DNA of 16,535 nt from Nanopusillaceae archaeon. Its GTDB lineage: Archaea > Nanobdellota > Nanobdellia > Nanobdellales > Nanobdellaceae. Numbering within the stretch: the stretch's first letter is position 1; the number at the start of each line of letters is the position of its first letter. The position numbers were made by a program, and so were the translations under genes. This document shows, in pieces, positions 206 to 13,289 of the stretch. Where the stretch lies: positions 1-16,535 of the forward strand of contig JBMFJD010000014.1 in the NCBI GenBank assembly GCA_049974095.1. The letters are read 5' to 3'. The notes under the pieces were generated by a model. That model saw only the letters and a program-made list of their open reading frames with translations, was not told where the DNA came from and did not search any database.

Positions 206-921
206 TTAAATACATATGATTGTCCTGAATATAATGTTTCAACTTGTGCTGCTGGTACTAAGTATAAGTAATTTTGGTTTGGATTGTAGTATAAGTAATA
301 TGATGTATTGAATAATGTTATTGGTTGTGGTGATGTTTGCAATTGTGTTACATCTACTCCTGGTTCAAAGAATACTGTTAAGCTAAATGCTGTTGCTTGT
401 GATGATGCTGCTAATGCTACATTTGGTTGTGGAGATGAAGATGATGTTGATGTTTGTACATATTTTAATTGGTAATTAGATAATGGTTGTACATATGCTG
501 TATATTGATATGTTGTTGTTTGTCCATTTACATTTGTTGCAAATGATCCTGATCCTACTTGTATTGCTTGTAATGAACTATTTAATGAATTACCTAAGTA
601 CAATGGTGCTCCTTGTAAGTAAAATGGATATGAATTTGGAATTACTGCTGATTGTCCTTGTAATTGTACTTGTAATGAAGATGTACTAACTGAAGAACTT
701 GTTGGTACAGATGTAAATGTTTCTAAACCAGCTACTATATTTGAAGCCCCTACAACATCTGCTGCATTTGCATTTGCTCCTACTGCTACTGTCCATGCTG
801 ATGGATTAGATTCCATTGATTGAGCTAGTTGTCCTATTGATGGTGCTCCTGATGCACTATATACTGCCAAACCTAATGCTGTCAATGCACCTATTGTGGC
901 CAAAGTCTTACCTTTCATCAT
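133..921 (-). CDS. Secreted Ser/Thr/Gln/Asn/Val/Tyr-rich cell-surface (S-layer-like) protein, signal-peptide-bearing part
   Basis: The ORF track gives 133..963. I prefer a start at the tandem Met codons 916..921, which yields MMKGKTLATIGALTALGLAVYSASG|APS, a Sec-type n/h/c signal. A TATA-like box lies about 28 nt upstream of 921. There are three N-x-S/T sequons (NSS, NTS, NIT). The protein has no Cys and almost no charged residues, a low-complexity beta-rich composition typical of archaeal envelope proteins. No family could be assigned by eye. Confidence 0.6.
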   Translation of the reverse strand: MMKGKTLATIGALTALGLAVYSASGAPSIGQLAQSMESNPSAWTVAVGANANAADVVGASNIVAGLETFTSVPTSSSVSTSSLQVQLQGQSAVIPNSYPFYLQGAPLYLGNSLNSSLQAIQVGSGSFATNVNGQTTTYQYTAYVQPLSNYQLKYVQTSTSSSSPQPNVALAASSQATAFSLTVFFEPGVDVTQLQTSPQPITLFNTSYYLYYNPNQNYLYLVPAAQVETLYSGQSYVFNGVNITVGYPVAQYTTSLAKDKLL

Positions 922-943
922 AAAAGATATATGTCTTTCTCTT

Positions 944-955
944 CCTTTATATCTT
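944..955 (-). promoter_or_regulatory. TATA-like box (reverse strand AAGATATAAAGG) for the surface-protein gene
   Basis: It is centred about 28 nt upstream of the Met codons at 916..921, the same spacing seen at other first genes in this window. The AT-rich background makes any single call weak. Confidence 0.3.
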
Positions 956-1035
956 TTTTCCATGAATATTTAAATTACAGCAACATTTAAAAGAATTTCT
1001 TTTTTTGATTAAAAATGTTAACTACTAAAAAATAG

Positions 1036-1701
1036 TTACAAATTTTTTATTAAAACCATTGGCAATAAATCTAAGATAGGCATAAAGAAAAGTATCCATA
1101 ATAATATTGGTATTATTGATAACCACATATTTACTAGAATCAATAAAGAAAATATTATTTCAATAAATCCAAATATTAATCCAAGAGATAATATATTAAA
1201 GAATATTGTTGATGAATTATGAATTTCTAAATTATATTTATCAATTTTTCCAAATAAAGAACCATAAAATGCATATAATGAAAATATTGATAATAATATT
1301 ATTGCAGAAACTATTATTGAATATGGTGTTGCTAAAGATACAATCAAATTAGAGAAATTTAATGTTCCTGTCATAAAGTATCCATTATAAATTGTATAGG
1401 AAAAAAGATAGAAATATATAACAACTAATAAAGATATAAACAATAAGATATTTTGAAGAATTTGTGGAATAAATAATGATAAAAATGAAACATTATATTT
1501 TGGTTCTAGTTTTTCCTCAGATAAATTTTGATAATACCATACAATTAATCTTGGATAATAGTAAGAATAAATATATGCTCCTATTATTGGAATCGAATTT
1601 ACTAATAACAATATTGTTTTTAAAATACCATATATCATCCCTGTTATTATATCTTTTTTATACAAATTATATGACTCTTTAACTAATTTCGTAAACTCCA
1701 T
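1036..1701 (-). CDS. Polytopic membrane protein of unknown function, tandem paralogue A
   Basis: 221-aa ORF with an N-terminal amphipathic segment (KESYNLYKKDII), then multiple hydrophobic spans. It has the conserved motif IPIIGAYIYSYYYPRLIVWYY and a YGSLFGKIDKYNL loop. It aligns along its full length with the neighbouring 204-aa ORF. Confidence 0.6.
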   Translation of the reverse strand: MEFTKLVKESYNLYKKDIITGMIYGILKTILLLVNSIPIIGAYIYSYYYPRLIVWYYQNLSEEKLEPKYNVSFLSLFIPQILQNILLFISLLVVIYFYLFSYTIYNGYFMTGTLNFSNLIVSLATPYSIIVSAIILLSIFSLYAFYGSLFGKIDKYNLEIHNSSTIFFNILSLGLIFGFIEIIFSLLILVNMWLSIIPILLWILFFMPILDLLPMVLIKNL

Positions 1702-1732
1702 AAAATATTTTTGTAAGATTATTTTAAAAAAA

Positions 1733-2347
1733 TTATAGTCCTTTCGACCTTAATAATGCTACCAATGTTATAACTGGTGTAAAGAAAATTATATCTAATA
1801 TTAATATTATAATACTTCCGATAATTGGACTGAAAAAGAATAAAAAGCTAATAATAACTACTATAATCAAAATTATTATAGATAACAATAACAGGTAAAA
1901 GAATATCTCCAATGATTTCATAGCATCTATTTTTAAAGAATCCACCTTACCCAATATTGAACCATATATGTTATATAACCATAATATTTCTAATATGGTC
2001 CCTACTCCAATAAAAAGTAATGATAATAGTAAAAATAAATTTGAACTTATTGAGATACCAGATACTATTAGAAAAGATAAAATAATTACTGCAGAAAATA
2101 TTAATAATGTACTTATAAATATAGCTTTAAACGCAACATTATAATTAGATTTTATATCTTCTCCAGTAATCTTTTTATAATACCAAGAAACAATTCTTGG
2201 ATAAACATAAGCATAAATTAAATTCCCTATCAATGGTATTGCCAATAAAAAACTCGCTATTACTAATATCAAACCGAATATTGAAGATGATATTATATCT
2301 TTTTTCCATAAATTAAAAGCTTGTTTATAAGTATCTATAAGACCCAT
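1733..2347 (-). CDS. Polytopic membrane protein of unknown function, tandem paralogue B
   Basis: 204-aa ORF. KQAFNLWKKDII, IPLIGNLIYAYVYPRIVSWYY and YGSILGKVDSLKI match paralogue A. By hand alignment about 31 of the first 78 residues are identical. Confidence 0.6.
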   Translation of the reverse strand: MGLIDTYKQAFNLWKKDIISSSIFGLILVIASFLLAIPLIGNLIYAYVYPRIVSWYYKKITGEDIKSNYNVAFKAIFISTLLIFSAVIILSFLIVSGISISSNLFLLLSLLFIGVGTILEILWLYNIYGSILGKVDSLKIDAMKSLEIFFYLLLLSIIILIIVVIISFLFFFSPIIGSIIILILDIIFFTPVITLVALLRSKGL

Positions 2348-2371
2348 AGAAAATATTTTAAAGAAATTTTT

Positions 2372-3895
2372 TTATTTTTTAGCAAATTTTATTCCTCTTT
2401 TTTCATATTCAATCATATCTAATAACAATTCTTCCTCATTTTTATATTCTTTCTTTAATAAAAACTTTGCAGATAAATAACTTATTCCTCTACCTGCATA
2501 TATAAATAGAAATCTTTTTCCATAATTTTTTAATAATTCTGCAGTAACATTTAATTTTGCCTCATCTTCTATATCCCTTTCATTTTTTGCTACACCAAAA
2601 TATTGACCTCCACATTTTTTACATTTAAATCCTTCATCATAATCCTTTACTTTTATCTTATATTTTGTTTTACATGCCATACATACTAATATCATTTCTG
2701 TATTTTCAATTCTTTCTTTTACTAATTTCAATATTTCTCTCCATTTATCAGAAATTAATACATCAGATACATATTGTTCTAATCCTAAAATTCCTAAAGG
2801 AGATAATGTTTCCTTATCAACAATATTTACTTTTATTTCTCCATTTTTTATTTTTTCAAATACTTTTTTAGTATTTTTTAAATCTAATTTTTCAATAAAT
2901 AATTCATTTAAAGTTTCTCTATATACTGGAGTATTTATTAAATGCTCCATTATTCTTCTAACTGTAGATTTAGAATAATCTGCATCCTTTCTTATTACTC
3001 CAAATCTTTTCGCTACATGAGTAAATTTCCATATAAATAAATCCGTATTTACAATTGCCCTTTCCAATATTTCTTCAATTTCTTCAGGTTTTATATTTTC
3101 AATTATTTCTTTTATATCTTCTTTACTAATAAATCCAGCTTTTAATAATATTCTATAAGGATCTGTTTTTATTCCAACAACAATTCCATATTTTTCAGAT
3201 ATTATTTGAGAAATTATTCTTGATATAGAATCATTTACTTTATTTCCAAATGGTGCATGAATTATAAACCAATCCTTATATTGCTCAATATAAATATTAT
3301 TTTTATCTGGATAAAAATATAATTCTTGATTTTTTAATTCTTCCCTATCCATTAATTCTTTTTTTATTTCCTGTGCTTCTTGTGCTACATCAAATGGTAC
3401 AGGTAATAATTCTCCTTCCCAAGATGGTATTGCAGATTCAAAATCATTTTCTAATGATACATATATTTTATTTCTATCTATTTTTTCAATTTTCCATGGT
3501 AATCCCTTTAATATAAATATAGTACCTGGGTTTCCATGTTTTGCAACAAATTCTTCATGTAAAATTCCAATTTTTTGTCCAGTAGTTATATCATATACAT
3601 TATATGATTTTTCATCAGGTATCATTGATATATTATCTAAAAAATAAAATAATCCTTTTCTTGTTTTTATCAATTTGTTATTATCTTTATCGAATCTAAT
3701 AATTTTTATTGAATCTAAAAAATTAATTACTTCTAAAAATTCCTCATATTTTAAATCTTTATAAATATAGGATCTCTTTATAGTATTCCAAACAAAATTA
3801 ATATCAACTTCTCCATATTCTAAAACAATACCAACAATTTGATTTGCTAATACATCTAAAGCATTATAATGAATTTCTGGTTTTTCAAGTCTCAT
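2372..3895 (-). CDS. Stand-alone Lhr-type helicase C-terminal module (DEAD/H-associated winged-helix plus domain 4) with a C-terminal zinc ribbon; no RecA-like helicase core
   Basis: The N-terminus PEIHYNALDVLANQIVGIVLEYGEVDINFVWNTIKRSYIYKDLKYEEFLEVINFL matches the start of the Lhr DEAD/H-associated region (PLDVLAQQ...). Later segments GTIFILKGLPWKIEKIDRNKIYVS and IPSWEGELLPVPFDVAQE fit the same family. A Cx2C-x16-Cx2C motif (CMAC...CKKC) lies at about 2612..2683. No Walker A or DExH motif is present, and the upstream neighbour is a divergent gene. Confidence 0.7.
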   Translation of the reverse strand: MRLEKPEIHYNALDVLANQIVGIVLEYGEVDINFVWNTIKRSYIYKDLKYEEFLEVINFLDSIKIIRFDKDNNKLIKTRKGLFYFLDNISMIPDEKSYNVYDITTGQKIGILHEEFVAKHGNPGTIFILKGLPWKIEKIDRNKIYVSLENDFESAIPSWEGELLPVPFDVAQEAQEIKKELMDREELKNQELYFYPDKNNIYIEQYKDWFIIHAPFGNKVNDSISRIISQIISEKYGIVVGIKTDPYRILLKAGFISKEDIKEIIENIKPEEIEEILERAIVNTDLFIWKFTHVAKRFGVIRKDADYSKSTVRRIMEHLINTPVYRETLNELFIEKLDLKNTKKVFEKIKNGEIKVNIVDKETLSPLGILGLEQYVSDVLISDKWREILKLVKERIENTEMILVCMACKTKYKIKVKDYDEGFKCKKCGGQYFGVAKNERDIEDEAKLNVTAELLKNYGKRFLFIYAGRGISYLSAKFLLKKEYKNEEELLLDMIEYEKRGIKFAKK

Positions 3896-3903
3896 AAATA
3901 AAA

Positions 3904-3912
3904 TTATATAAA
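3904..3912 (+). promoter_or_regulatory. TATA-like box (TTATATAAA) for the GT-C gene
   Basis: It is centred 26 nt upstream of the ATG at 3934, inside the 38-nt divergent intergenic region. Confidence 0.3.
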
Positions 3913-3919
3913 CATTTTA

Positions 3920-3928
3920 TTTATAAAT
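3920..3928 (-). promoter_or_regulatory. TATA-like box (reverse strand ATTTATAAA) for the Lhr C-terminal module gene
   Basis: It is centred about 29 nt upstream of the start at 3895 and sits back-to-back with the box at 3904..3912. Confidence 0.25.
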
Positions 3929-3933
3929 AAAAA

Positions 3934-5259
3934 ATGAATATTGAAGAAACAAAGAAATATATCTATATTTTCCTAATTTCGTTTATTCCACAATTATTAG
4001 TAATTATAACATCTCCATTAACTTTATTTTGGGACGAATATTCATATTTGGATAATATAAAGCATGTATTATTAAATACTCCATACTTTGAATATTACAG
4101 ATTTCCATTATTATGGTGGATATTAATTCCTGCTGCATATTTTTCAAATTTCAATATATTTGCAATAAAATTATTTTTAGCGATTATTTTCTCTTTATCA
4201 ACAATTTTCTTATATAGAATATTAAAGAATTATAATAGTGATACAATAAATTTTATATTAATTTTATTTTATTCATTAAATGGACTAATATTAATTTGGG
4301 GATCAAGAATTTATCCAGATATTTTAGCAACGTCTTTACTTATTTTTTCAGTATATTTTTATTTTAAATTTTTAGAAAACAATAAAGAAAGAAATTTAAT
4401 TTTATATTCATTATTTTCAGATTTATCTATTTTATCAAAATATGAATATGGTTTATGGTTAATTCCTTCTTTAATATTTTTGAAAAATAAAGATAAAATA
4501 AAAACAATTATTTATTCTTTTATATTTGCAATTCCATATTTTTTATATAATTTAATTTTATATCATAATCCAATATATATTTTTATTAAACAGGCAGAAG
4601 TTGTATATACATATACTATATCTCAACCAATTACAGTTTTTTTATATGAATTATTAATATTTTCAGGTATTTATTTATTATCATTAATCCAAAATCCAAA
4701 GAAAATGAATAATTTTGAAAAATCAATCTATTTATATATAATTTTATCATTAATATTTTTATCATTCTTTGTTAAAGCAAAAGATCCAAGATATATTTTA
4801 ATGATATTGCCAACATTTGTTATAATAACAAGGAAATTTATAGAAAAAATAAAAGGATTACAATTACCATATTTCCTGTTTTTCTCTATATTAAACGCTT
4901 TATCTATGTATTATGGACTTATTTATATATTGAATTATAATACAAATCTTGGAAATACATATCTAAATTATATTTATAGAGCATCTATATTCTTGAAACA
5001 ATATAATCCCTCAACAATACTAACAAATTATCTCTGGCCTGAAATAGCTTATTATACAAATTCACAAGTTTATATAATGTATAATGCAACATATTTAATT
5101 CCAAGAGTTCATCCACAATTTATAGTATATACACCAGACTGCGGTGTATCTTTCCAATTTAACCCAGAAAATTATAATATATCATTAATATATTATTATA
5201 TAGATCCCGGTGATTGCTCTGTATATATTTATAAGGTAAATAGCTATGAAGTTAAATAA
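3934..5259 (+). CDS. GT-C fold membrane glycosyltransferase (ArnT / dolichyl-phosphate-mannose-protein mannosyltransferase-like, PMT_2-type)
   Basis: 441 aa and highly hydrophobic, with many predicted spans. An acidic DE motif sits in the first loop after TM1 (LTLFWDEYSYLDN), as in GT39/GT83-type enzymes. The C-terminal soluble tail is about 100 aa. There is no WWDYG motif, so this is not an AglB/STT3 oligosaccharyltransferase. Confidence 0.6.
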   Translation: MNIEETKKYIYIFLISFIPQLLVIITSPLTLFWDEYSYLDNIKHVLLNTPYFEYYRFPLLWWILIPAAYFSNFNIFAIKLFLAIIFSLSTIFLYRILKNYNSDTINFILILFYSLNGLILIWGSRIYPDILATSLLIFSVYFYFKFLENNKERNLILYSLFSDLSILSKYEYGLWLIPSLIFLKNKDKIKTIIYSFIFAIPYFLYNLILYHNPIYIFIKQAEVVYTYTISQPITVFLYELLIFSGIYLLSLIQNPKKMNNFEKSIYLYIILSLIFLSFFVKAKDPRYILMILPTFVIITRKFIEKIKGLQLPYFLFFSILNALSMYYGLIYILNYNTNLGNTYLNYIYRASIFLKQYNPSTILTNYLWPEIAYYTNSQVYIMYNATYLIPRVHPQFIVYTPDCGVSFQFNPENYNISLIYYYIDPGDCSVYIYKVNSYEVK

Positions 5260-5903
5260 TTTTCTAATGTAGATTCATTTATAAATCCTCTAAATATAAA
5301 TGTTCCATTATTTTTTATCATAATAATAAAAGGCCATGTCGTTATATTATATTTTAAATCATAATATCTTATAAAATAGTTTGGATATGAAGAATCAAAT
5401 GAATAAATATATAATGAGTCATAATATTTTGTATATAGATATGTTAATATATCTCCCTCATTATAACATTCTGTAGAACATACCTTATTATTATAGAAAT
5501 ATAGAATTAATGTAAAGTTTGTATAATCACATTCTTCAATATAATTTCTTGTTAATAAAAAATGTAAATATTCTAAATTAAAATATTGAGATTTTAAATA
5601 ATCTACTTCTCCCTTATTAAAATATATATTTTCAGGAGATTCCAAATATGTTAATTCCAATCCAATTTGAGCAATTTGTGATTTTAAATATTGTAAAAAT
5701 GAAAAATAATTTTCTGTACATTCTAATTTTTGAGATTGAGCTAAATATTGAGCAGAAATTACTAAAGAATTTATATTATTTATTTGCAATATACTTTGTT
5801 GAAATGAATATTGATATAAAATATAACCTAGTAAAATACCTAGGAAAAATGTTAATATTGAAATTATTATTGATAATGTTATTATATTTTTTGCTTTATC
5901 CAT
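5244..5903 (-). CDS. Membrane-anchored (N-terminal TM) extracytoplasmic thioredoxin-fold protein with a CSTEC (CxxxC) motif
   Basis: The N-terminus MDKAKN is followed by one hydrophobic span. The C-terminal about 90 aa aligns by eye to E. coli thioredoxin in three blocks:
- LILYFYNNKVCSTECYNEGDILTYLYTKY against [27 protein letters not shown]
- ITTWPFIIMIKNNG against IRGIPTLLLFKNGE (cis-Pro loop)
- GFINESTLENYL against GALSKGQLKEFL
The Cys residues are C62, C125, C142 and C146. The start overlaps the GT2 gene's stop by 8 nt. Confidence 0.5.
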   Translation of the reverse strand: MDKAKNIITLSIIISILTFFLGILLGYILYQYSFQQSILQINNINSLVISAQYLAQSQKLECTENYFSFLQYLKSQIAQIGLELTYLESPENIYFNKGEVDYLKSQYFNLEYLHFLLTRNYIEECDYTNFTLILYFYNNKVCSTECYNEGDILTYLYTKYYDSLYIYSFDSSYPNYFIRYYDLKYNITTWPFIIMIKNNGTFIFRGFINESTLENYLTS

Positions 5904-7939: not shown

Positions 7940-8684
7940 TGCTTTAGAAGCATTAAAAAATAGTTTTATATTTTATTATAAAAATTTTTTTAATATTTTA
8001 ATAATTTATTTACCATTTTTTATTCCTAATTTAATTTTATCTCTATTCTTTAAAGTTAATTATAAAAATTTGCTATCTTTAAATATCTATATTCTAGAAT
8101 ATTTACTTCTTTTACTTTTAATTTCAATAATTATTTATCCATTTGAAAAAATAACAATATATCTTTATTTTTATAATAAAAATATTAAAGAAGCATATAA
8201 GGAATCATCAAAATATTATTTTGGTATTTTATTCATTTATATAATTTTCTTACTAATTTCTTCTTCCCTTATTATTTTATCTTTAATACTTTCACTTATT
8301 TTTTCTTTCCCAATATTTATTCTAACAGAAAATTTTTCTCTTGTTTTTTATTCAATAATCTTTTTATTTATAATTTTTTCAATTATTTCTTTAATAATTA
8401 CAAATAAATTTTTCTTATCACCACTAATATATATTTTTAGAAGAAAAATTGTTTTCAGATCTTTAAAAGAATCCTGGAAGATAATAAATATAAAAAATGC
8501 TACAAAAATATTTCTAATACAATTAATATTTTATTCTATTGCAATAATTATATTAATTTTACAACAAATATTAAATATACATTTATATTTAAAGATCCTT
8601 TATGTATTTATTTCTACATTTTTCCTAATACCAATTGGAGGAATATTTTCCTTATATATTTATCAACAATATCAAGATAAATAA
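7920..8684 (+). CDS. Polytopic membrane protein of unknown function (GTG start)
   Basis: 254 aa with an N-terminal amphipathic segment (FNALEALKNSFIFYYKN) followed by many hydrophobic spans. The architecture resembles the 1036..2347 paralogues, but homology is not demonstrable by eye. There is no in-frame ATG anywhere in the ORF. GTG at 7920 is the only canonical start after the in-frame stop at 7911..7913. Confidence 0.55.
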   Translation: MEKSKFNALEALKNSFIFYYKNFFNILIIYLPFFIPNLILSLFFKVNYKNLLSLNIYILEYLLLLLLISIIIYPFEKITIYLYFYNKNIKEAYKESSKYYFGILFIYIIFLLISSSLIILSLILSLIFSFPIFILTENFSLVFYSIIFLFIIFSIISLIITNKFFLSPLIYIFRRKIVFRSLKESWKIINIKNATKIFLIQLIFYSIAIIILILQQILNIHLYLKILYVFISTFFLIPIGGIFSLYIYQQYQDK

Positions 8685-9154
8685 CCTTCAAATCTTAATA
8701 ATTTTTCCTTAAATTCTTTTCCTAAAGGTGTATATTCTCCTATATTTTTATTACTTTTTATTACTCTATGACATGGTATTAAAATTATAAACGGATTATT
8801 TTTTAATGCTCTAATTATATTTATATAACTTAATCCTGTTTTTTCTTTTAATTCCTTATAACTAATTACTTTACCCTTTTCTATTTTTAATATTTCTTCA
8901 TATACTTCATTAAATTTATATTTAGATAAATTAAAACTAAATTTCTCCCCATTTAATACTTTTTCGATTCTTTCTTCAAAAAATTTATCTAATTTTTCAT
9001 CAAAAAATAAATCTCCATCTAAATTATGAAATATTGCTATACTTTTTAATTGCTCAATTAATTTTTCTTGATCTTTATTTAATGAATATGCTAATACTTT
9101 CCCCTCCTTTATTATATATCCTGAATAAAATTCTTCTCCTAGTATTTTAATCAT
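8672..9154 (-). CDS. ogt: Methylated-DNA--protein-cysteine methyltransferase (O6-alkylguanine-DNA alkyltransferase)
   Basis: The active-site motif IPCHRVI is followed by G.Y..G, and a helix-turn-helix region ISYKELKEKTG lies upstream. At 160 aa the size is typical of archaeal Ogt. The ATG directly abuts the bcp stop (TAGATG at 9152..9157). Confidence 0.85.
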   Translation of the reverse strand: MIKILGEEFYSGYIIKEGKVLAYSLNKDQEKLIEQLKSIAIFHNLDGDLFFDEKLDKFFEERIEKVLNGEKFSFNLSKYKFNEVYEEILKIEKGKVISYKELKEKTGLSYINIIRALKNNPFIILIPCHRVIKSNKNIGEYTPLGKEFKEKLLRFEGYLS

Positions 9155-9592
9155 CTAGCTATTTTCTTTTATAATTTCTAATGATTTATATGCATGTTCT
9201 TTTGCATTTGATAATGATTTTAATATTGATATTATATTCATATTTTTATCAATAATAAATGTTATTCTTGTTGCTCCTTTTCCTCTTCCTTTTGCATTAT
9301 ACAAATTTATTATTTTTAATTCTGGATCTGCTATTAATGGAAATTGTGCACCATATTTTTCTGCAAATTTCTTTTGAGTATCTAATTTATCATTACTAAC
9401 TCCTATTATTTCTGTATTATATTTTCTAAATTCTTCATATAATTCTACAAATCTTTTCAATTCTTGAGTACATCCGGATGTAAATGCTTTAGGATAAAAA
9501 TATAAAACTACGAAATTTTTTTGCTTTAATATTTCTGATAATTTTATTTTTCCTTTTGTAGATTCAGCTTCAAAATCTAATGCTTTTTCCAT
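9155..9592 (-). CDS. bcp: Peroxiredoxin, BCP/PrxQ subfamily (single-Cys form)
   Basis: VVLYFYPKAFTSGCTQE contains the peroxidatic Cys. IIGVSNDKLDTQKKFAEKY is also present. At 145 aa and with only one Cys, it fits the single-Cys BCP form. Confidence 0.85.
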   Translation of the reverse strand: MEKALDFEAESTKGKIKLSEILKQKNFVVLYFYPKAFTSGCTQELKRFVELYEEFRKYNTEIIGVSNDKLDTQKKFAEKYGAQFPLIADPELKIINLYNAKGRGKGATRITFIIDKNMNIISILKSLSNAKEHAYKSLEIIKENS

Positions 9593-9622
9593 TAATTAAT
9601 ATTAAAAAATATATTAAAAAGC

Positions 9623-10294
9623 CTATTGTTTTACTTCTTTATATGTAAACCACCAATCAAACCCATCTAATTCTTTTTTATTTATCTTTTCTAATCTTTC
9701 CATAGCTTCTTCTATTTTATCTGATGGTGGAATTATTACTTTATTTCCTATAATTTCATTATTTGGCCAATTTGCTGGAATTGCTACATTATACTTATCT
9801 GCTATCTGTAAAGCCTTTACCATTCTTAATATTTCATCAATATTTCTACCTAATTCTTGTGGATAATATAATATTGCTCTAATTGTTCCTTCTGGATCTA
9901 TAACAAATACTGCTCTTACAGTATTTGTTCCTTTTTCAGGATGAATCATTCCATATAAACTTGCAACTTTTCCTTGATCATCTGCAATAATTGGAAATTC
10001 TATTTCTTCTTTTAATTTTTCTTTTATCCATTCTATCCACTTTATATGAGCGTATACTTGATCTATAGACAATCCTATTAATTCTGTATTTAATTTTTTA
10101 AATTCTTCATATCTTTTTTGAAATGCATAAAATTCTGTAGTACATACTGGCGTAAAATCTGCTGGATGACTAAACAATACTACCCATTTTCCCTTATAAT
10201 CTTCCGGAAACTTTATTTTTCCTTTTGTAGTTATTGCTTCAAAAGATGGCGCTTTTTCTCCAATTCTTGGTATAGATCTAATTTCTCTTTCCAT
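9623..10294 (-). CDS. Archaeal-type 1-Cys peroxiredoxin (Prx6 subfamily)
   Basis: The motifs [41 protein letters not shown] and PANWP are present, along with the long C-terminal arm typical of this subfamily. The protein has a single Cys. Confidence 0.9.
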
Positions 10295-10313
10295 AATATA
10301 ATATTTATAGTAA

Positions 10314-10325
10314 CAATTATAAACT
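10314..10325 (-). promoter_or_regulatory. TATA-like box (reverse strand core TTTATAA) for the 1-Cys prx gene
   Basis: The core at 10317..10323 is centred 26 nt upstream of the start codon at 10294. Confidence 0.3.
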
Positions 10326-10331
10326 TTATAG

Positions 10332-10344
10332 TACGAAATTAGTA
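10332..10344. promoter_or_regulatory. Imperfect 6-1-6 palindrome TACGAA-A-TTAGTA; candidate operator shared with the sod promoter
   Basis: It differs at one arm position from the perfect sod site TACGAA-T-TTCGTA (13274..13286). It is centred 44 nt upstream of the prx start, compared with 46 nt for sod. It abuts the lrp TATA-like box. Confidence 0.35.
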
Positions 10345-10355
10345 AAATATATAAG
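10344..10355 (+). promoter_or_regulatory. TATA-like box (AAAATATATAAG) for the Lrp/AsnC gene
   Basis: It is centred about 28 nt upstream of the ATG at 10378. Confidence 0.3.
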
Positions 10356-10377
10356 ATTTTCAGTATAATAAAATATT

Positions 10378-10809
10378 ATGAAAAAATCAAAAATTGATGA
10401 TATAGATATAAAAATAATAAAATTATTAGAAAGAAATTCTAGAATATCAAATATGGAAATAGCTAGAAAATTAAATTTATCTGAAGGAGCTATAAGAAAA
10501 AGAATAGATAAATTAATAAAAATGAAAGTTATAAAGAGATTTTCTGCAATAATAAATTATAATTTATTAGGATATAAAATATGCTGGATAGGATTAAATA
10601 TAGAGAAAAATAAAATAGTTGATGTAATAAATAAAATACCTATAAATGATAATATAAAAGGAATATTTTTAACTTATGGAGATCATGATATCATTATAGA
10701 ATATATATACAAAGAAAATAAAGAGCTAGAAGATTATTTAAATAAAATAAGAGAAATAAGCGAAATAAAAGAAATATGGCCTGCAGTATCAATAGAAAGA
10801 ATTTACTAA
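10378..10809 (+). CDS. Lrp/AsnC-family transcriptional regulator
   Basis: The N-terminal HTH DDIDIKIIKLLERNSRISNMEIARKLNLSEGAIRKRIDKLIKMKVIKRF is followed by a RAM-type C-terminal domain. The size is 143 aa. Confidence 0.85.
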   Translation: MKKSKIDDIDIKIIKLLERNSRISNMEIARKLNLSEGAIRKRIDKLIKMKVIKRFSAIINYNLLGYKICWIGLNIEKNKIVDVINKIPINDNIKGIFLTYGDHDIIIEYIYKENKELEDYLNKIREISEIKEIWPAVSIERIY

Positions 10810-10816
10810 TTTTTTA

Positions 10817-10831
10817 CCTATAGGTACGTAC
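10817..10831. promoter_or_regulatory. Two abutting 8-nt palindromes CCTATAGG / GTACGTAC upstream of the 2-Cys prx TATA-like box
   Basis: Both are perfect self-complementary octamers sharing G10824. They are centred about 40-45 nt upstream of the ATG at 10869. They are among the few C/G-containing stretches in this intergenic region. Confidence 0.3.
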
Positions 10832-10837
10832 ATCATA

Positions 10838-10849
10838 CTTTATAAAAAT
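10838..10849 (+). promoter_or_regulatory. TATA-like box (CTTTATAAAAAT) for the 2-Cys prx gene
   Basis: It is centred 25-26 nt upstream of the ATG at 10869. Confidence 0.35.
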
Positions 10850-10868
10850 ATAATTCAATATACTATTT

Positions 10869-11501
10869 ATGGAAGCAACATTACAACAAACAATAAAAAT
10901 AATAGGAGTAGGGGATAAAGTACCAGAATTAAAGATAAACGTATACGATCCTGTAGATAAAAAGTTCAAAGTAATAGATATATATAAAGATATATTAAAT
11001 AAGGGGAAATTTTTAGTATTATTCTATTATCCAGCAGACTTTACTTTTGTATGTCCAACAGAATTAGAAGATTTAGCAGAAAAATATGAAGAAATAAAGA
11101 AAGAAGGAGCAGAAGTAATTTCTATGTCTACAGATACTGTATATACACATCTAGCATGGCACGCAACGGAAAAATTATTGGAAAATGTAAGATATCCAAT
11201 GGGAGAAGATCATAATGGAAATATAGCAAAAATGTTCAATATATATGATTATAATTCTGGAGTTTCATATAGAGCAACAATTATAATAGATCCTGATGGA
11301 AAGATTGTTGCAATGGAGATACATTCTAATGATGTGGGAAGAGATGCTGATGAATTATTAAGAAAAATAGAAGCATTTAAATATGTAAGAGAGCATCCTG
11401 GAGAAGTATGTCCAGCAAAATGGGGTAAGGAGGTAAATGTAACATTAAGACCAGGAGAAAACTTAGTAGGAAAAGTATATGAATATTATAAAAGAAAATA
11501 G
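10869..11501 (+). CDS. ahpC: Typical 2-Cys peroxiredoxin (AhpC/Prx1 subfamily)
   Basis: FLVLFYYPADFTFVCPTE contains the peroxidatic Cys. The C-terminal HPGEVCPAKW contains the resolving Cys. The protein is 210 aa. Confidence 0.9.
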   Translation: MEATLQQTIKIIGVGDKVPELKINVYDPVDKKFKVIDIYKDILNKGKFLVLFYYPADFTFVCPTELEDLAEKYEEIKKEGAEVISMSTDTVYTHLAWHATEKLLENVRYPMGEDHNGNIAKMFNIYDYNSGVSYRATIIIDPDGKIVAMEIHSNDVGRDADELLRKIEAFKYVREHPGEVCPAKWGKEVNVTLRPGENLVGKVYEYYKRK

Positions 11502-12203
11502 TTAATAGAGAAGATATAACAATATTTTTTTCAGCACCATCTCCAAATCTCTTTTTGGTAGACCTAGTAAACTATATATAACATCTTCATGAATTAATAT
11601 ATCTTTTACTTCTATCTTATCTACTCCTACGTAAAATATTCTAATATCTCTTCCATATTTATTTTCCATTTCTGGTGATGAAACAAAAATAGCTGTTGGT
11701 GGAATATTTTTTGTTTGAATATATTGAACAGTAGTAAAACCTGAAACATATGAAATAAAGATAGCCTCTCTTAAAAGTTGCAAAAAAACTTCGAAAAAAG
11801 AATCGTTTTTAAATAAACTATTTATGCTATTTATATAACTCCTTCTCTTATATTCTATGCTATAAACTCTTTTATAATCTTTATTAAAAGCTCCATAATC
11901 TGATTCTAGTATATATGGTCTTTCTTTATTTATAGATACCCAAGAATATTTTCCACTTTTTAAAATGATTGTTCTATAATCTTTTCCCCCATCATGATGT
12001 CTTCCTATTACAACATAACCATCGCATCCTATAAAATCACTAGAAGAGCATTTTTTAATAATAATCTTATCTAGAGGTATCATATTCTCATTATTCCTTA
12101 TATAATTATGGAAATTTATTCTTCCTTCGCATTCATCAGAAGAACTTTCGATCGGAAAAATTCTCTGAGAATCTATTATTTCTTCCAGCTCCACCTCCTT
12201 CAT
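11502..12203 (-). CDS. Hypothetical cytoplasmic protein (233 aa) with an N-terminal Cys/His cluster and a C-terminal D-x11-E-V-K motif
   Basis: The long ORF has no TM span or signal peptide. Its ATG overlaps the stop of orf135 (ATGA at 12200..12203). Potential metal-binding residues are C25, H32, C52, C60, H69 and H70. The segment GRDIRIFYVGVDKIEVKD (D186...E198-V-K200, nt 11604..11648) is present. I recognised no family. Confidence 0.6.
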   Translation of the reverse strand: MKEVELEEIIDSQRIFPIESSSDECEGRINFHNYIRNNENMIPLDKIIIKKCSSSDFIGCDGYVVIGRHHDGGKDYRTIILKSGKYSWVSINKERPYILESDYGAFNKDYKRVYSIEYKRRSYINSINSLFKNDSFFEVFLQLLREAIFISYVSGFTTVQYIQTKNIPPTAIFVSSPEMENKYGRDIRIFYVGVDKIEVKDILIHEDVIYSLLGLPKRDLEMVLKKILLYLLY

Positions 12204-12607
12204 TCATTTATTTTTTTATAAAAGTTTAATAATATATCTTCGATACTTTTAAAAACTCTAGAGTAAATCTTATTTATATTTGGGCTCTCAATTACCCATC
12301 TTGAATACTTAAATTTTCCACCAGACATAATAAAAGTATATATAAAATATTTTACCTTATTATTATCTTCTCTTTCATATACTTTTATTACTCCACCTCC
12401 AGAATAATTTTTATTCTCATCTCCAAATATTATACGAATATATAAAGATTCATTCCTTTTGATCATTTCCTTTATATAATTTTCTATTCCTTTTTCTTCA
12501 TATTCTCTAATAATATTTTCCAATTTTTCTTCTTTTCTTATTTTTATTTTTATTTCTTTATTATCAATAACATATTCTATTCCTTTCGGATCTTCTTCTA
12601 TATACAT
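12200..12607 (-). CDS. Hypothetical cytoplasmic protein (135 aa), no Cys or His
   Basis: The ORF starts 9 nt after the sod stop on the same strand. It has a charged helical N-terminal half (EKLENIIREYEEKGIENYIKEMIKR) and a beta-like C-terminal half with two SGG motifs (YSGGGVIKVY, MSGGKFKYS). I recognised no family. Confidence 0.6.
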   Translation of the reverse strand: MYIEEDPKGIEYVIDNKEIKIKIRKEEKLENIIREYEEKGIENYIKEMIKRNESLYIRIIFGDENKNYSGGGVIKVYEREDNNKVKYFIYTFIMSGGKFKYSRWVIESPNINKIYSRVFKSIEDILLNFYKKINE

Positions 12608-12616
12608 AATAAAGAA

Positions 12617-13234
12617 TTATACTTTAAGTTTATCAAATCTAGCCTCTACTACCTTCCAGTCTATATTATCAAAGAAAACATCTACATATCCTTTCCTATT
12701 ACTTCCATAATCTAAATAATATGCATGCTCAAATACATCTAATGCTAATATTAATTTAGAATTCTGGACCATATATGTATTTTGTTCATCAGAAATAGAA
12801 ATTACCAATTTATTTAAATCATCTGACCATAATAACCATGCCCATCCTCTTGCTGCCATAGCAGTTGCTTTCATTTCTTTTACGAATTTATCAAATAATC
12901 CAAAATCTTTATCTATTTGCGTTCCTAATGCTCCACCAGGTTTTCCGCCTTCACCCCCTAGATGTCCAAAATATATTTCATGATTTATCATTCCTCCAAA
13001 AGCTCTGGTCCATTCTACTTTTAATTCTCTTATCAATGAATATGTAACATTTGCTGCATTATAATCTTCATCTGTTAGACTTTCTAACTTTTGACTTATT
13101 TCGTTATATTTTTTTACATATCCTTCATATATTTTCAAATGTTCTTCAATTGTTTTTGCAGAAATTCCTTTCATTTGAAATAATTGTGGTCTTTCTTTCC
13201 TAAAATCTATTGATTTTCTCTCAACAAATACCAT
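12617..13234 (-). CDS. sod: Fe/Mn superoxide dismutase
   Basis: The C-terminal signature DVFEHAYYLDYGSNRKGYV carries the Asp and His ligands. GGMINHEIYF and EEHLKIYEGYV supply the other two His ligands. The protein is 205 aa. Confidence 0.9.
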   Translation of the reverse strand: MVFVERKSIDFRKERPQLFQMKGISAKTIEEHLKIYEGYVKKYNEISQKLESLTDEDYNAANVTYSLIRELKVEWTRAFGGMINHEIYFGHLGGEGGKPGGALGTQIDKDFGLFDKFVKEMKATAMAARGWAWLLWSDDLNKLVISISDEQNTYMVQNSKLILALDVFEHAYYLDYGSNRKGYVDVFFDNIDWKVVEARFDKLKV

Positions 13235-13255
13235 AAATTATTATATATAACAATG

Positions 13256-13265
13256 TTTTATAAAT
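13256..13265 (-). promoter_or_regulatory. TATA-like box (palindromic core TTTATAAA) for sod
   Basis: The core at 13257..13264 is centred 26-27 nt upstream of the sod start at 13234. Confidence 0.3.
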
Positions 13266-13270
13266 TTCTT

Positions 13271-13289
13271 ATATACGAATTTCGTATAT
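13271..13289. promoter_or_regulatory. Perfect 9-1-9 inverted repeat ATATACGAA-T-TTCGTATAT; candidate operator upstream of sod
   Basis: I read it directly and checked the arms for exact reverse complementarity. It lies just upstream of the TATA-like box and is centred 46 nt from the sod start. It contains two CG dinucleotides in an otherwise nearly pure A/T intergenic region. Confidence 0.45.

Follow-up and report, generated by a model that had tools for sequence, protein, structure and literature searches.

Directly downstream of sod, the gene for superoxide dismutase (SOD), a 16,535-nucleotide stretch of DNA from a Nanopusillaceae archaeon (Nanoarchaeota/Nanobdellota; contig JBMFJD010000014.1; 23% G+C), hereafter the window, carries two genes, orf135 and orf233, that lie outside any described family. 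Comparison with related genomes indicates that they represent a two-gene module that appears specific to Nanopusillaceae and has probably stood 3' of sod from a time before the known genera diverged. The finding is real and concerns more than a pair of orphan open reading frames (ORFs) in a single genome. The pair is dispensable and, apart from a short active-site-like signature, evolves almost neutrally. The closest kind of known system is a PD-(D/E)xK nuclease with a coupled partner, and we favor, with a probability of about 0.4, the interpretation that the pair is a nuclease-plus-partner conflict module, either toxin-antitoxin-like or defense-like.

All three genes lie on the minus strand. 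The Fe/Mn superoxide dismutase gene sod (12617..13234; Pfam Sod_Fe_C, 8.6e-29), whose protein is 82–94% identical in other Nanopusillaceae, is the conserved anchor directly upstream of the pair. Its TAA stop is separated by a 9-nucleotide spacer, ttctttatt (12608..12616), from the ATG (12607-12605) of the small first gene, orf135 (12200..12607; 135 amino acids). The TGA of orf135 and the ATG of the large second gene, orf233 (11502..12203; 233 amino acids; 'hypothetical protein ACP5GJ_04205' at NCBI), overlap as ATGA at 12203-12200. The TAA stop of orf233 (11504-11502) abuts, with zero spacing, the TAG stop (11499-11501) of a convergent 2-Cys peroxiredoxin gene (10869..11501, plus strand; Pfam AhpC-TSA, 8.6e-32), the conserved downstream boundary of the slot that the pair fills. 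A previous model-generated reading of this DNA (the sequence-only reading) had pointed out the short spacer, the ATGA overlap, and the abutting stops, and on re-check all of its coordinates were exact. The neighbors of the pair are sod, three AhpC/TSA-family genes, an Lrp/AsnC regulator, and an MGMT-type DNA_binding_1 protein.

The slot behind sod in Nanopusillaceae

Both ORFs are real genes, because stops make up ~9% of random codons at 23% G+C, which gives an open 233-codon frame a chance of about 1e-10 (an arithmetic estimate); because both frames show coding periodicity (GC1>GC2>GC3, the G+C content of the three codon positions), with GC3 similar to that of their neighbors; and because a second contig, 99.6% identical, keeps both of them open. 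The sequence-only reading had found neither membrane spans nor a family for the two proteins, and we agree on both counts. Maximal 19-residue Kyte-Doolittle scores are 1.26 for orf233 and 0.48 for orf135, compared with 2.91 for a membrane control, and searches of Pfam, NCBIfam, PADLOC, PHROGs, and PDB sequences were all empty. Neither protein could be assigned to a housekeeping family by profile or structure searches (Pfam, NCBIfam, PDB, and, for orf135, Foldseek). A word-index search of 5.8 billion proteins with either protein returned only the query itself, and its profile version only YN1 and self. Exhaustive HMMER searches among 1.84 billion representative proteins revealed no relatives of orf233 outside one family; two weak phmmer matches (P0003 and P0004) were repeat proteins aligned over one 33-residue stretch and were discarded as spurious. 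A single-sequence AlphaFold2 model of orf135 (predicted local distance difference test score, pLDDT, 72; predicted template modeling score, pTM, 0.67) has the topology beta3-alpha2-beta4-alpha with a long last helix, and produced no Foldseek match with E<=0.001 or with a TM-score above 0.4 in PDB and BFVD.

To look for counterparts beyond direct sequence similarity, we used the SOD protein as an anchor to search one genome per species and the JGI metagenomes, which yielded ~55 Nanopusillaceae loci. Their shared backbone consists of cutA, methionine aminopeptidase, histone, sod, the slot, peroxiredoxins, Lrp, and an MGMT-type gene. A small-plus-large gene pair, on the sod strand and starting 5–21 nucleotides past the sod stop, is present in 31 further loci: strain YN1, N. 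acidilobi, N. stetteri, Nanobdella aerobiophila, and ~27 additional loci from genomes or hot-spring metagenomes. Stop and start codons of the two genes mostly overlap, the junction being TAATG or longer in YN1, N. acidilobi, and N. stetteri. There are four mutually unalignable sequence types of pair, in which the small and large proteins measure, respectively, 135 and 233 amino acids (window), 135 and 219 (strain YN1), 124 and 216 (Nanobdella aerobiophila), and ~220 and 275–292 ('Nac-type', from Nanopusillus/Nanobsidianus). Hence the earlier proposal of a two-gene module physically tied to sod is borne out: small and large counterparts are paired in the same slot in relatives, and, as described below, the two proteins co-vary.

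The remaining loci show that the pair is dispensable. In nine of them the slot is empty, with 26–36 bp before the next gene, and sod is intact and equally conserved there. Three loci carry a disrupted pair, possibly through assembly errors. Other content fills the slot in four loci, of which three hold four paralogous minus-strand genes (L003, 5939-8960; L086, about 1050-4110; L114, about 770-3810) and one a single minus-strand ORF; in a further locus, L111, the four paralogues (about 2725-5740) stand alongside the pair. These genes, found in some Nanopusillus genomes between sod and the MGMT-type gene, encode proteins of ~120–316 amino acids with N termini like MDGxYTNLDE that have no Pfam match. 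Since they occupy the slot in some genomes, it also behaves as a small variable region.

A tree of the SOD proteins shows the pair in all major branches, with empty slots dispersed over the tree, a distribution suggesting that the pair is ancestral to Nanopusillaceae and was lost several times. SOD homologues outside the family (Aenigmatarchaeota, candidate phyla radiation (CPR) bacteria, and others) are accompanied by neither such a pair nor a protein with the signature described below. The apparent uniqueness of the two window proteins thus probably reflects saturation of sequence change rather than true uniqueness.

Signature and evolution of the pair

Similarity between the four types is faint, the best BLAST match (E = 5.5e-4) being that between the YN1 and Nanobdella large proteins. 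A multiple alignment of the large proteins contains only five invariant non-initiator columns. Three of these correspond to D102, E117, and K119 of orf233, which are invariant in all four types. They are followed by Q138-L-L-R141, and QLxR, too, aligns among the types. The region of orf233 in question (11781..11906, minus strand; E100-S-D102 ... E117-Y-K119 ... Q138-L-L-R141) is a candidate PD-(D/E)xK-type active site followed by a helix. We scanned all ORFs of at least 100 amino acids in the 161 loci fetched with the pattern D.{10,22}E.K.{5,25}Q[LV].R. It matched 34 of 2,366 ORFs, and every one of the 34 was the second gene after sod, including those of the window, YN1, and Nanobdella. Composition-preserving shuffles contain the composite signature in 0.02–0.3% of cases per protein (0.1–0.2% for orf233). 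Among 25 Nac-type large sequences, with a mean column identity of 71%, the residues E128, D130, E148, K150, Y162, K164, and L167-Q168-x-F-R-S172 are invariant. In the large proteins, one hydrophobic stretch follows the aspartate and another precedes E-x-K; this pattern and crude Chou-Fasman propensities only suggest a beta-hairpin at D...ExK.

We consider common descent of the four types a reasonable reading of these sequences, because there are three independent signature matches with zero false positives, all with matching genomic position and gene order. Alignable whole-length homology was also considered and dropped, as hmmsearch, hhalign, and leave-one-out comparisons were all insignificant; only the signature was retained. 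The Cys/His cluster to which the sequence-only reading had drawn attention does exist in orf233 (C25, C52, and C60; H32, H69, H70, and H205), but the counterparts do not share it. Neither across the types nor among Nac-type proteins, large or small, does any Cys or His stay invariant, and the large protein of N. acidilobi is free of Cys altogether.

Ratios of non-synonymous to synonymous substitution rates (dN/dS), given as medians among 16 Nac-type loci, set the pair apart from its surroundings. The values were 0.745 for the small and 0.733 for the large gene (~0.74 for the pair), compared with 0.06–0.25 for nine neighboring genes: histone, 0.06; sod, 0.064; cutA, 0.08; bcp, 0.08; the MGMT-type gene, 0.10; Lrp, 0.11; methionine aminopeptidase, 0.115; peroxiredoxin, 0.17; and an unannotated membrane protein, 0.25. 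Independent data point the same way: for an N. stetteri population, the per-gene table of single-nucleotide polymorphisms (SNPs) of Jarett et al. (2018; PMC6142677 supplement) lists 12 non-synonymous and 0 synonymous SNPs for the 843-nucleotide large gene, two after sod, and 0 non-synonymous and 2 synonymous SNPs for sod.

The two genes of the pair evolve as one unit with a history partly separate from that of sod, because distances among small proteins correlate with those among large proteins at r = 0.85 (Mantel p = 1e-4; partial r = 0.85 with the flanks controlled), as against ~0.4 for the pair and sod. The flank-flank correlation is 0.69.

A candidate nuclease module and its rivals

We propose that the large protein may be a PD-(D/E)xK-type (restriction-endonuclease-fold) nuclease, a fold to which, judging from the signature, we give roughly even odds. 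Its aspartate and Glu-x-Lys would lie on a beta-hairpin, ahead of a QLxR helix. The small protein, translationally coupled to it through the overlapping stop and start codons, would be its partner, acting either as an inhibitor (antitoxin-like) or as a specificity or sensor subunit. The two proteins would interact physically and together make up a nuclease-based genetic-conflict module. Co-transcription with sod is predicted, with plausible low-level expression of the pair by partial read-through from the sod promoter. PD-(D/E)xK nucleases of the RecB/Cas4/NucS kind are typified by a D...ExK hairpin followed by a Q-motif helix, and restriction-type nucleases keep only those few residues. It is the arrangement of D, ExK, and QLxR in an apparent hairpin, combined with the fast co-evolution and dispensability of the pair, that leads us to commit to a nuclease-plus-partner conflict module.

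As in PD-(D/E)xK enzymes of the RecB/Cas4/NucS type (D ... ExK ... Q-h-x-x-Y), the aspartate of the large protein appears to lead into a hydrophobic strand, which after a short turn gives way to a second such strand terminating in E-x-K, with a predicted helix starting at Q-L-x-R 12–19 residues further on; as in type II restriction enzymes, a few residues are kept and the rest has diverged past recognition. Unlike in those nucleases, the Q motif has E or S instead of Y at its fifth position, and Cas4-type cysteines, superfamily profile matches, and PDB matches are all missing from the large proteins.

Type II toxin-antitoxin systems resemble the pair in that two co-directional genes, the smaller one first, overlap at their stop and start codons, are dispensable, evolve fast, and co-vary. 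However, the pair proteins are larger than usual (124–233 and 216–292 amino acids), neither an antitoxin DNA-binding domain (helix-turn-helix, ribbon-helix-helix, or AbrB) nor a known toxin family was matched in Pfam, NCBIfam, or PADLOC, and the site is fixed family-wide rather than scattered or mobile, with no dedicated promoter evident. With two-component modification-dependent (type IV) restriction and other nuclease-based defense the pair shares the combination of a candidate nuclease and a partner protein, the lack of a methyltransferase in the annotated neighborhood, and presence/absence polymorphism among close relatives; it differs from them in having neither a nucleoside triphosphatase motif or domain nor a PADLOC match, and in lying between housekeeping antioxidant genes instead of in a defense island. 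As for restriction-modification, no methyltransferase family was found among the called genes of the ~10.5-kb neighborhood, in which the MGMT-type DNA_binding_1 protein is the only alkyl-transfer protein.

Several observations weigh against a nuclease-based conflict module. A chromosomal site that stays fixed over deep divergence is unusual for toxin-antitoxin or defense cassettes. Between the types, hmmsearch scores were insignificant and hhalign P-values ranged from 0.01 to 0.9, and in whole-length profiles built leaving one type out, the left-out protein scored no better than shuffles. The homology of the types would therefore rest on position, architecture, and a short signature noticed after the fact. 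The D.{10,22}E.K part alone occurs in 56–69% of shuffles, the proteins being rich in Lys, Glu, and Asp; it is thus QLxR that confers specificity, and the nuclease reading hinges on the motif context. Profile searches of Pfam, NCBIfam, PADLOC, PHROGs, and PDB covering all four types gave no support for a nuclease fold. Whole proteins and core segments alike had zero PD-(D/E)xK matches by sequence or profile (Pfam, NCBIfam, PDB), and nothing above noise emerged when single proteins and three profiles were run against PDB sequences. The 5,027 models of PADLOC-DB 2.0 gave zero significant matches to the window, YN1, Nanobdella, and N. acidilobi pairs and the 25 Nac-type large proteins; the YN1 large protein reached E = 0.005 with Cas4d, which is not significant with eight proteins scanned. 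The single-sequence AlphaFold2 model of orf233 was unusable (pLDDT 33) and lends the fold no structural backing.

The evolutionary and expression data contribute to the same side of the balance. Variation is spread evenly along both proteins, so that plain relaxed constraint fits as well as an arms race. T5-T7 runs, which are archaeal terminator-like signals, directly follow the sod stop in most relatives, whether the pair is behind it or not (for example, L007, 6619-6638; L010, 6619-6624; L004, 6619-6626; L008, 6619-6625); the longest T run in the window's spacer is 3 (ttctttatt). If the T run terminates transcription, read-through into the pair would differ between strains. Hypothetical proteins of Nanoarchaeota as a class have a high density of non-synonymous SNPs (PMC6142677). 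In the N. acidilobi proteome (PMC4935971, Supplementary Data 1) SOD was among the proteins detected, whereas Nps_00685 and Nps_00690, the two 'uncharacterized proteins' that come next, were not; these two proteins, the N. acidilobi pair, have no arCOG in the same source. The YN1 paper and its supplement yielded no data on expression of the pair.

If the conflict-module interpretation is correct, the pair would be among the first nuclease-based systems of this kind defined in Nanoarchaeota. DPANN symbionts have tiny genomes in which each retained gene is expected to matter and a large share is unannotated. The pair offers a tractable case, since it was apparently locked behind a housekeeping gene before Nanobdella, YN1, and Nanopusillus diverged, evolves ~10 times faster than its neighbors, was repeatedly lost, and keeps only an active-site-like signature; moreover, three co-culture systems with different alleles already exist. 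A more specific version strikes us as unlikely: a hitherto undescribed DPANN nuclease-plus-partner conflict system permanently coupled to the sod transcript at its 3' end, its dose following oxidative-stress transcription, that would serve either as a module for addiction or abortive response, set off by stress or infection, or as a nuclease processing foreign or host nucleic acid in an obligate symbiont unable to make its own nucleotides.

The main rival, which we regard as possible if doubtful, is that these are lineage-specific orphan proteins under weak constraint, with a structural, regulatory, or host-interaction role or almost no role, D/ExK/QLxR being a structural or binding motif. The dN/dS of ~0.74 with its even spread along both proteins, the repeated loss or disruption of the pair, the undetected N. 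acidilobi peptides, the missing profile or fold evidence for an enzyme family, and the generally high non-synonymous SNP density in hypothetical proteins of the group would all fit. Yet frames of 124–292 codons have been kept open at 23% G+C across a synonymous divergence (dS) of the flanks of ~0.3–1.6, which requires selection. Invariance of a few charged residues amid change is the pattern of catalytic residues, and the overlapping stop and start codons together with the co-variation at r = 0.85 point to a functional complex.

The sequence-only reading had suggested, as one of two options, a defense or toxin-antitoxin cassette inserted downstream of sod. One part of this suggestion stands, in that a fast, dispensable, co-evolving pair with a D...ExK...QLxR signature fits a nuclease conflict module. 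Taken literally, as a recent insertion of a mobile cassette whose alleles are swapped between strains, it seems to us improbable. One indication in its favor is that DNA identity between the window and YN1 falls from 80–95% to ~40–50% exactly across 12622-11524 and returns to 88–93% at the peroxiredoxin. Replacement is not needed to explain this drop, and we rejected it as the cause: the flanking genes of the two strains have a dS of 0.3–1.0, at which, with the dN/dS of ~0.75 measured for the pair, ordinary vertical descent suffices to remove all similarity. Also in its favor, the pair has a history in part independent of its flanks (r ~0.4 with sod versus 0.69 flank-flank), and the same slot holds the four minus-strand genes in L003, L086, and L114. 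Nevertheless, the pair sits at one common site in all major lineages, its G+C content and GC3 are native, no tRNA, integrase, or meaningful flanking repeat was found near it, viral contigs scanned with three queries contained no relatives, and no known defense or toxin-antitoxin family was recognized, PADLOC models included. A 16-nucleotide direct repeat (11483-11498 and 12663-12678) was rejected as an attachment site, since its copies lie within conserved coding sequence of the peroxiredoxin gene and sod.

We find it hard to credit a housekeeping role in which the large protein, as a DNA-repair nuclease aided by an accessory subunit, would deal with oxidative DNA damage under shared regulation with the oxidative-stress and MGMT genes. 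The nuclease-like signature, the adjoining sod, peroxiredoxins, and MGMT-type protein, and the stable position across the family would suit such a role. Repair enzymes are conserved, however, whereas the pair is near-neutral, unrecognizable between genera, and missing from nine related loci; it lacks an arCOG in N. acidilobi and relatives beyond one family in the 1.84 billion representatives.

The other option of the sequence-only reading, an SOD accessory for metal delivery or damage sensing forming one functional operon with sod, would account for the position of the pair within an antioxidant block and, in every lineage carrying it, 5–21 nucleotides behind sod on the same strand, and for the three Cys and four His of orf233, but is highly improbable given nine pair-less loci with sod intact and equally conserved, a dN/dS more than 10 times that of sod (~0.74 versus 0.06), the lack of invariant Cys/His (with a Cys-free large protein in N. 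acidilobi), the T run between sod and the pair in most relatives, and a restriction to one family, SOD homologues in Aenigmatarchaeota, CPR bacteria, and others being without such neighbors. SOD metallochaperones such as CCS, the copper chaperone for Cu/Zn-SOD, resemble the pair only in physical linkage to sod; the pair differs from them in having no conserved metal-binding Cys/His, in being dispensable where sod is kept, and in its near-neutral evolution. We know of no dedicated accessory protein of such a kind for prokaryotic Fe/Mn-SOD.

Expression signals and neighboring genes

The only obvious promoter upstream of sod, orf135, and orf233 is a TATA-like box, TTTATAAAA (13256..13264, minus strand), centered ~26 nucleotides upstream of the sod ATG. 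It lies inside TTTATAAAACATTGTTATA, a TATA-to-start stretch conserved in the window, YN1, N. acidilobi, N. stetteri, and RSNS12. The 9-nucleotide spacer between sod and orf135 is too short for a promoter. The sequence-only reading had seen no convincing TATA-like box ahead of orf135. TTTGATAAA does lie 22–31 nucleotides upstream of the orf135 ATG, within sod, but strings of this kind are ubiquitous at so high an A+T content. The sod TATA-like box is immediately preceded, in the position of a TFB-recognition element or operator, by a perfect inverted repeat of 9 bp, ATATACGAA-A-TTCGTATAT (13271-13289, minus strand), which the window has but YN1, Nanobdella, and Nanopusillus do not. It could be a putative strain-specific regulator binding site.

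Right after the orf233 ATG there is a GC-rich Shine-Dalgarno-like string, AAGGAGGTGG (12191-12200, minus strand), odd for a 23% G+C genome; no in-frame start codon occurs within 15 nucleotides downstream of it. At the other end of the pair, its coding sequence and that of the convergent peroxiredoxin end 0–4 nucleotides apart in the window (11499-11504), YN1, and Nanobdella (L007, 7703-7711; L010, 7669-7678). It follows that the two transcripts either overlap or each stop within the coding sequence of the other.

Rearrangements distinguish the antioxidant blocks of different lineages (8672-11501 in the window versus 8198-10495 in L004 and 7709-12209 in L007). The window, YN1, and Nanobdella carry the 2-Cys peroxiredoxin gene (10869-11501 in the window), which this site lacks in the Nanopusillus/Nanobsidianus clade; there the MGMT-bcp-Lrp-prx order is inverted. 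In YN1, two genes for large membrane proteins (464 and 307 amino acids) stand between bcp and the MGMT-type gene; judging by eye only, we take these proteins to resemble cytochrome bd oxidase subunits.

Outside Nanopusillaceae, the nearest SOD relatives (among loci L011-L081 and L122-L161) are found in Aenigmatarchaeota (73–74% identity), followed by CPR/Patescibacteria (36–59%; Roizmanbacteria, Berkelbacteria, and Saccharibacteria) and other DPANN, which suggests an SOD lineage common to small-celled episymbionts of both domains. Elsewhere in the window, a gene at 2372-3895 (minus strand) encodes a 507-amino-acid protein that contains only the C-terminal modules of Lhr (WHD_Lhr and DEAD_assoc), without the helicase core; this could be a case of gene splitting, as known from Nanoarchaeota.

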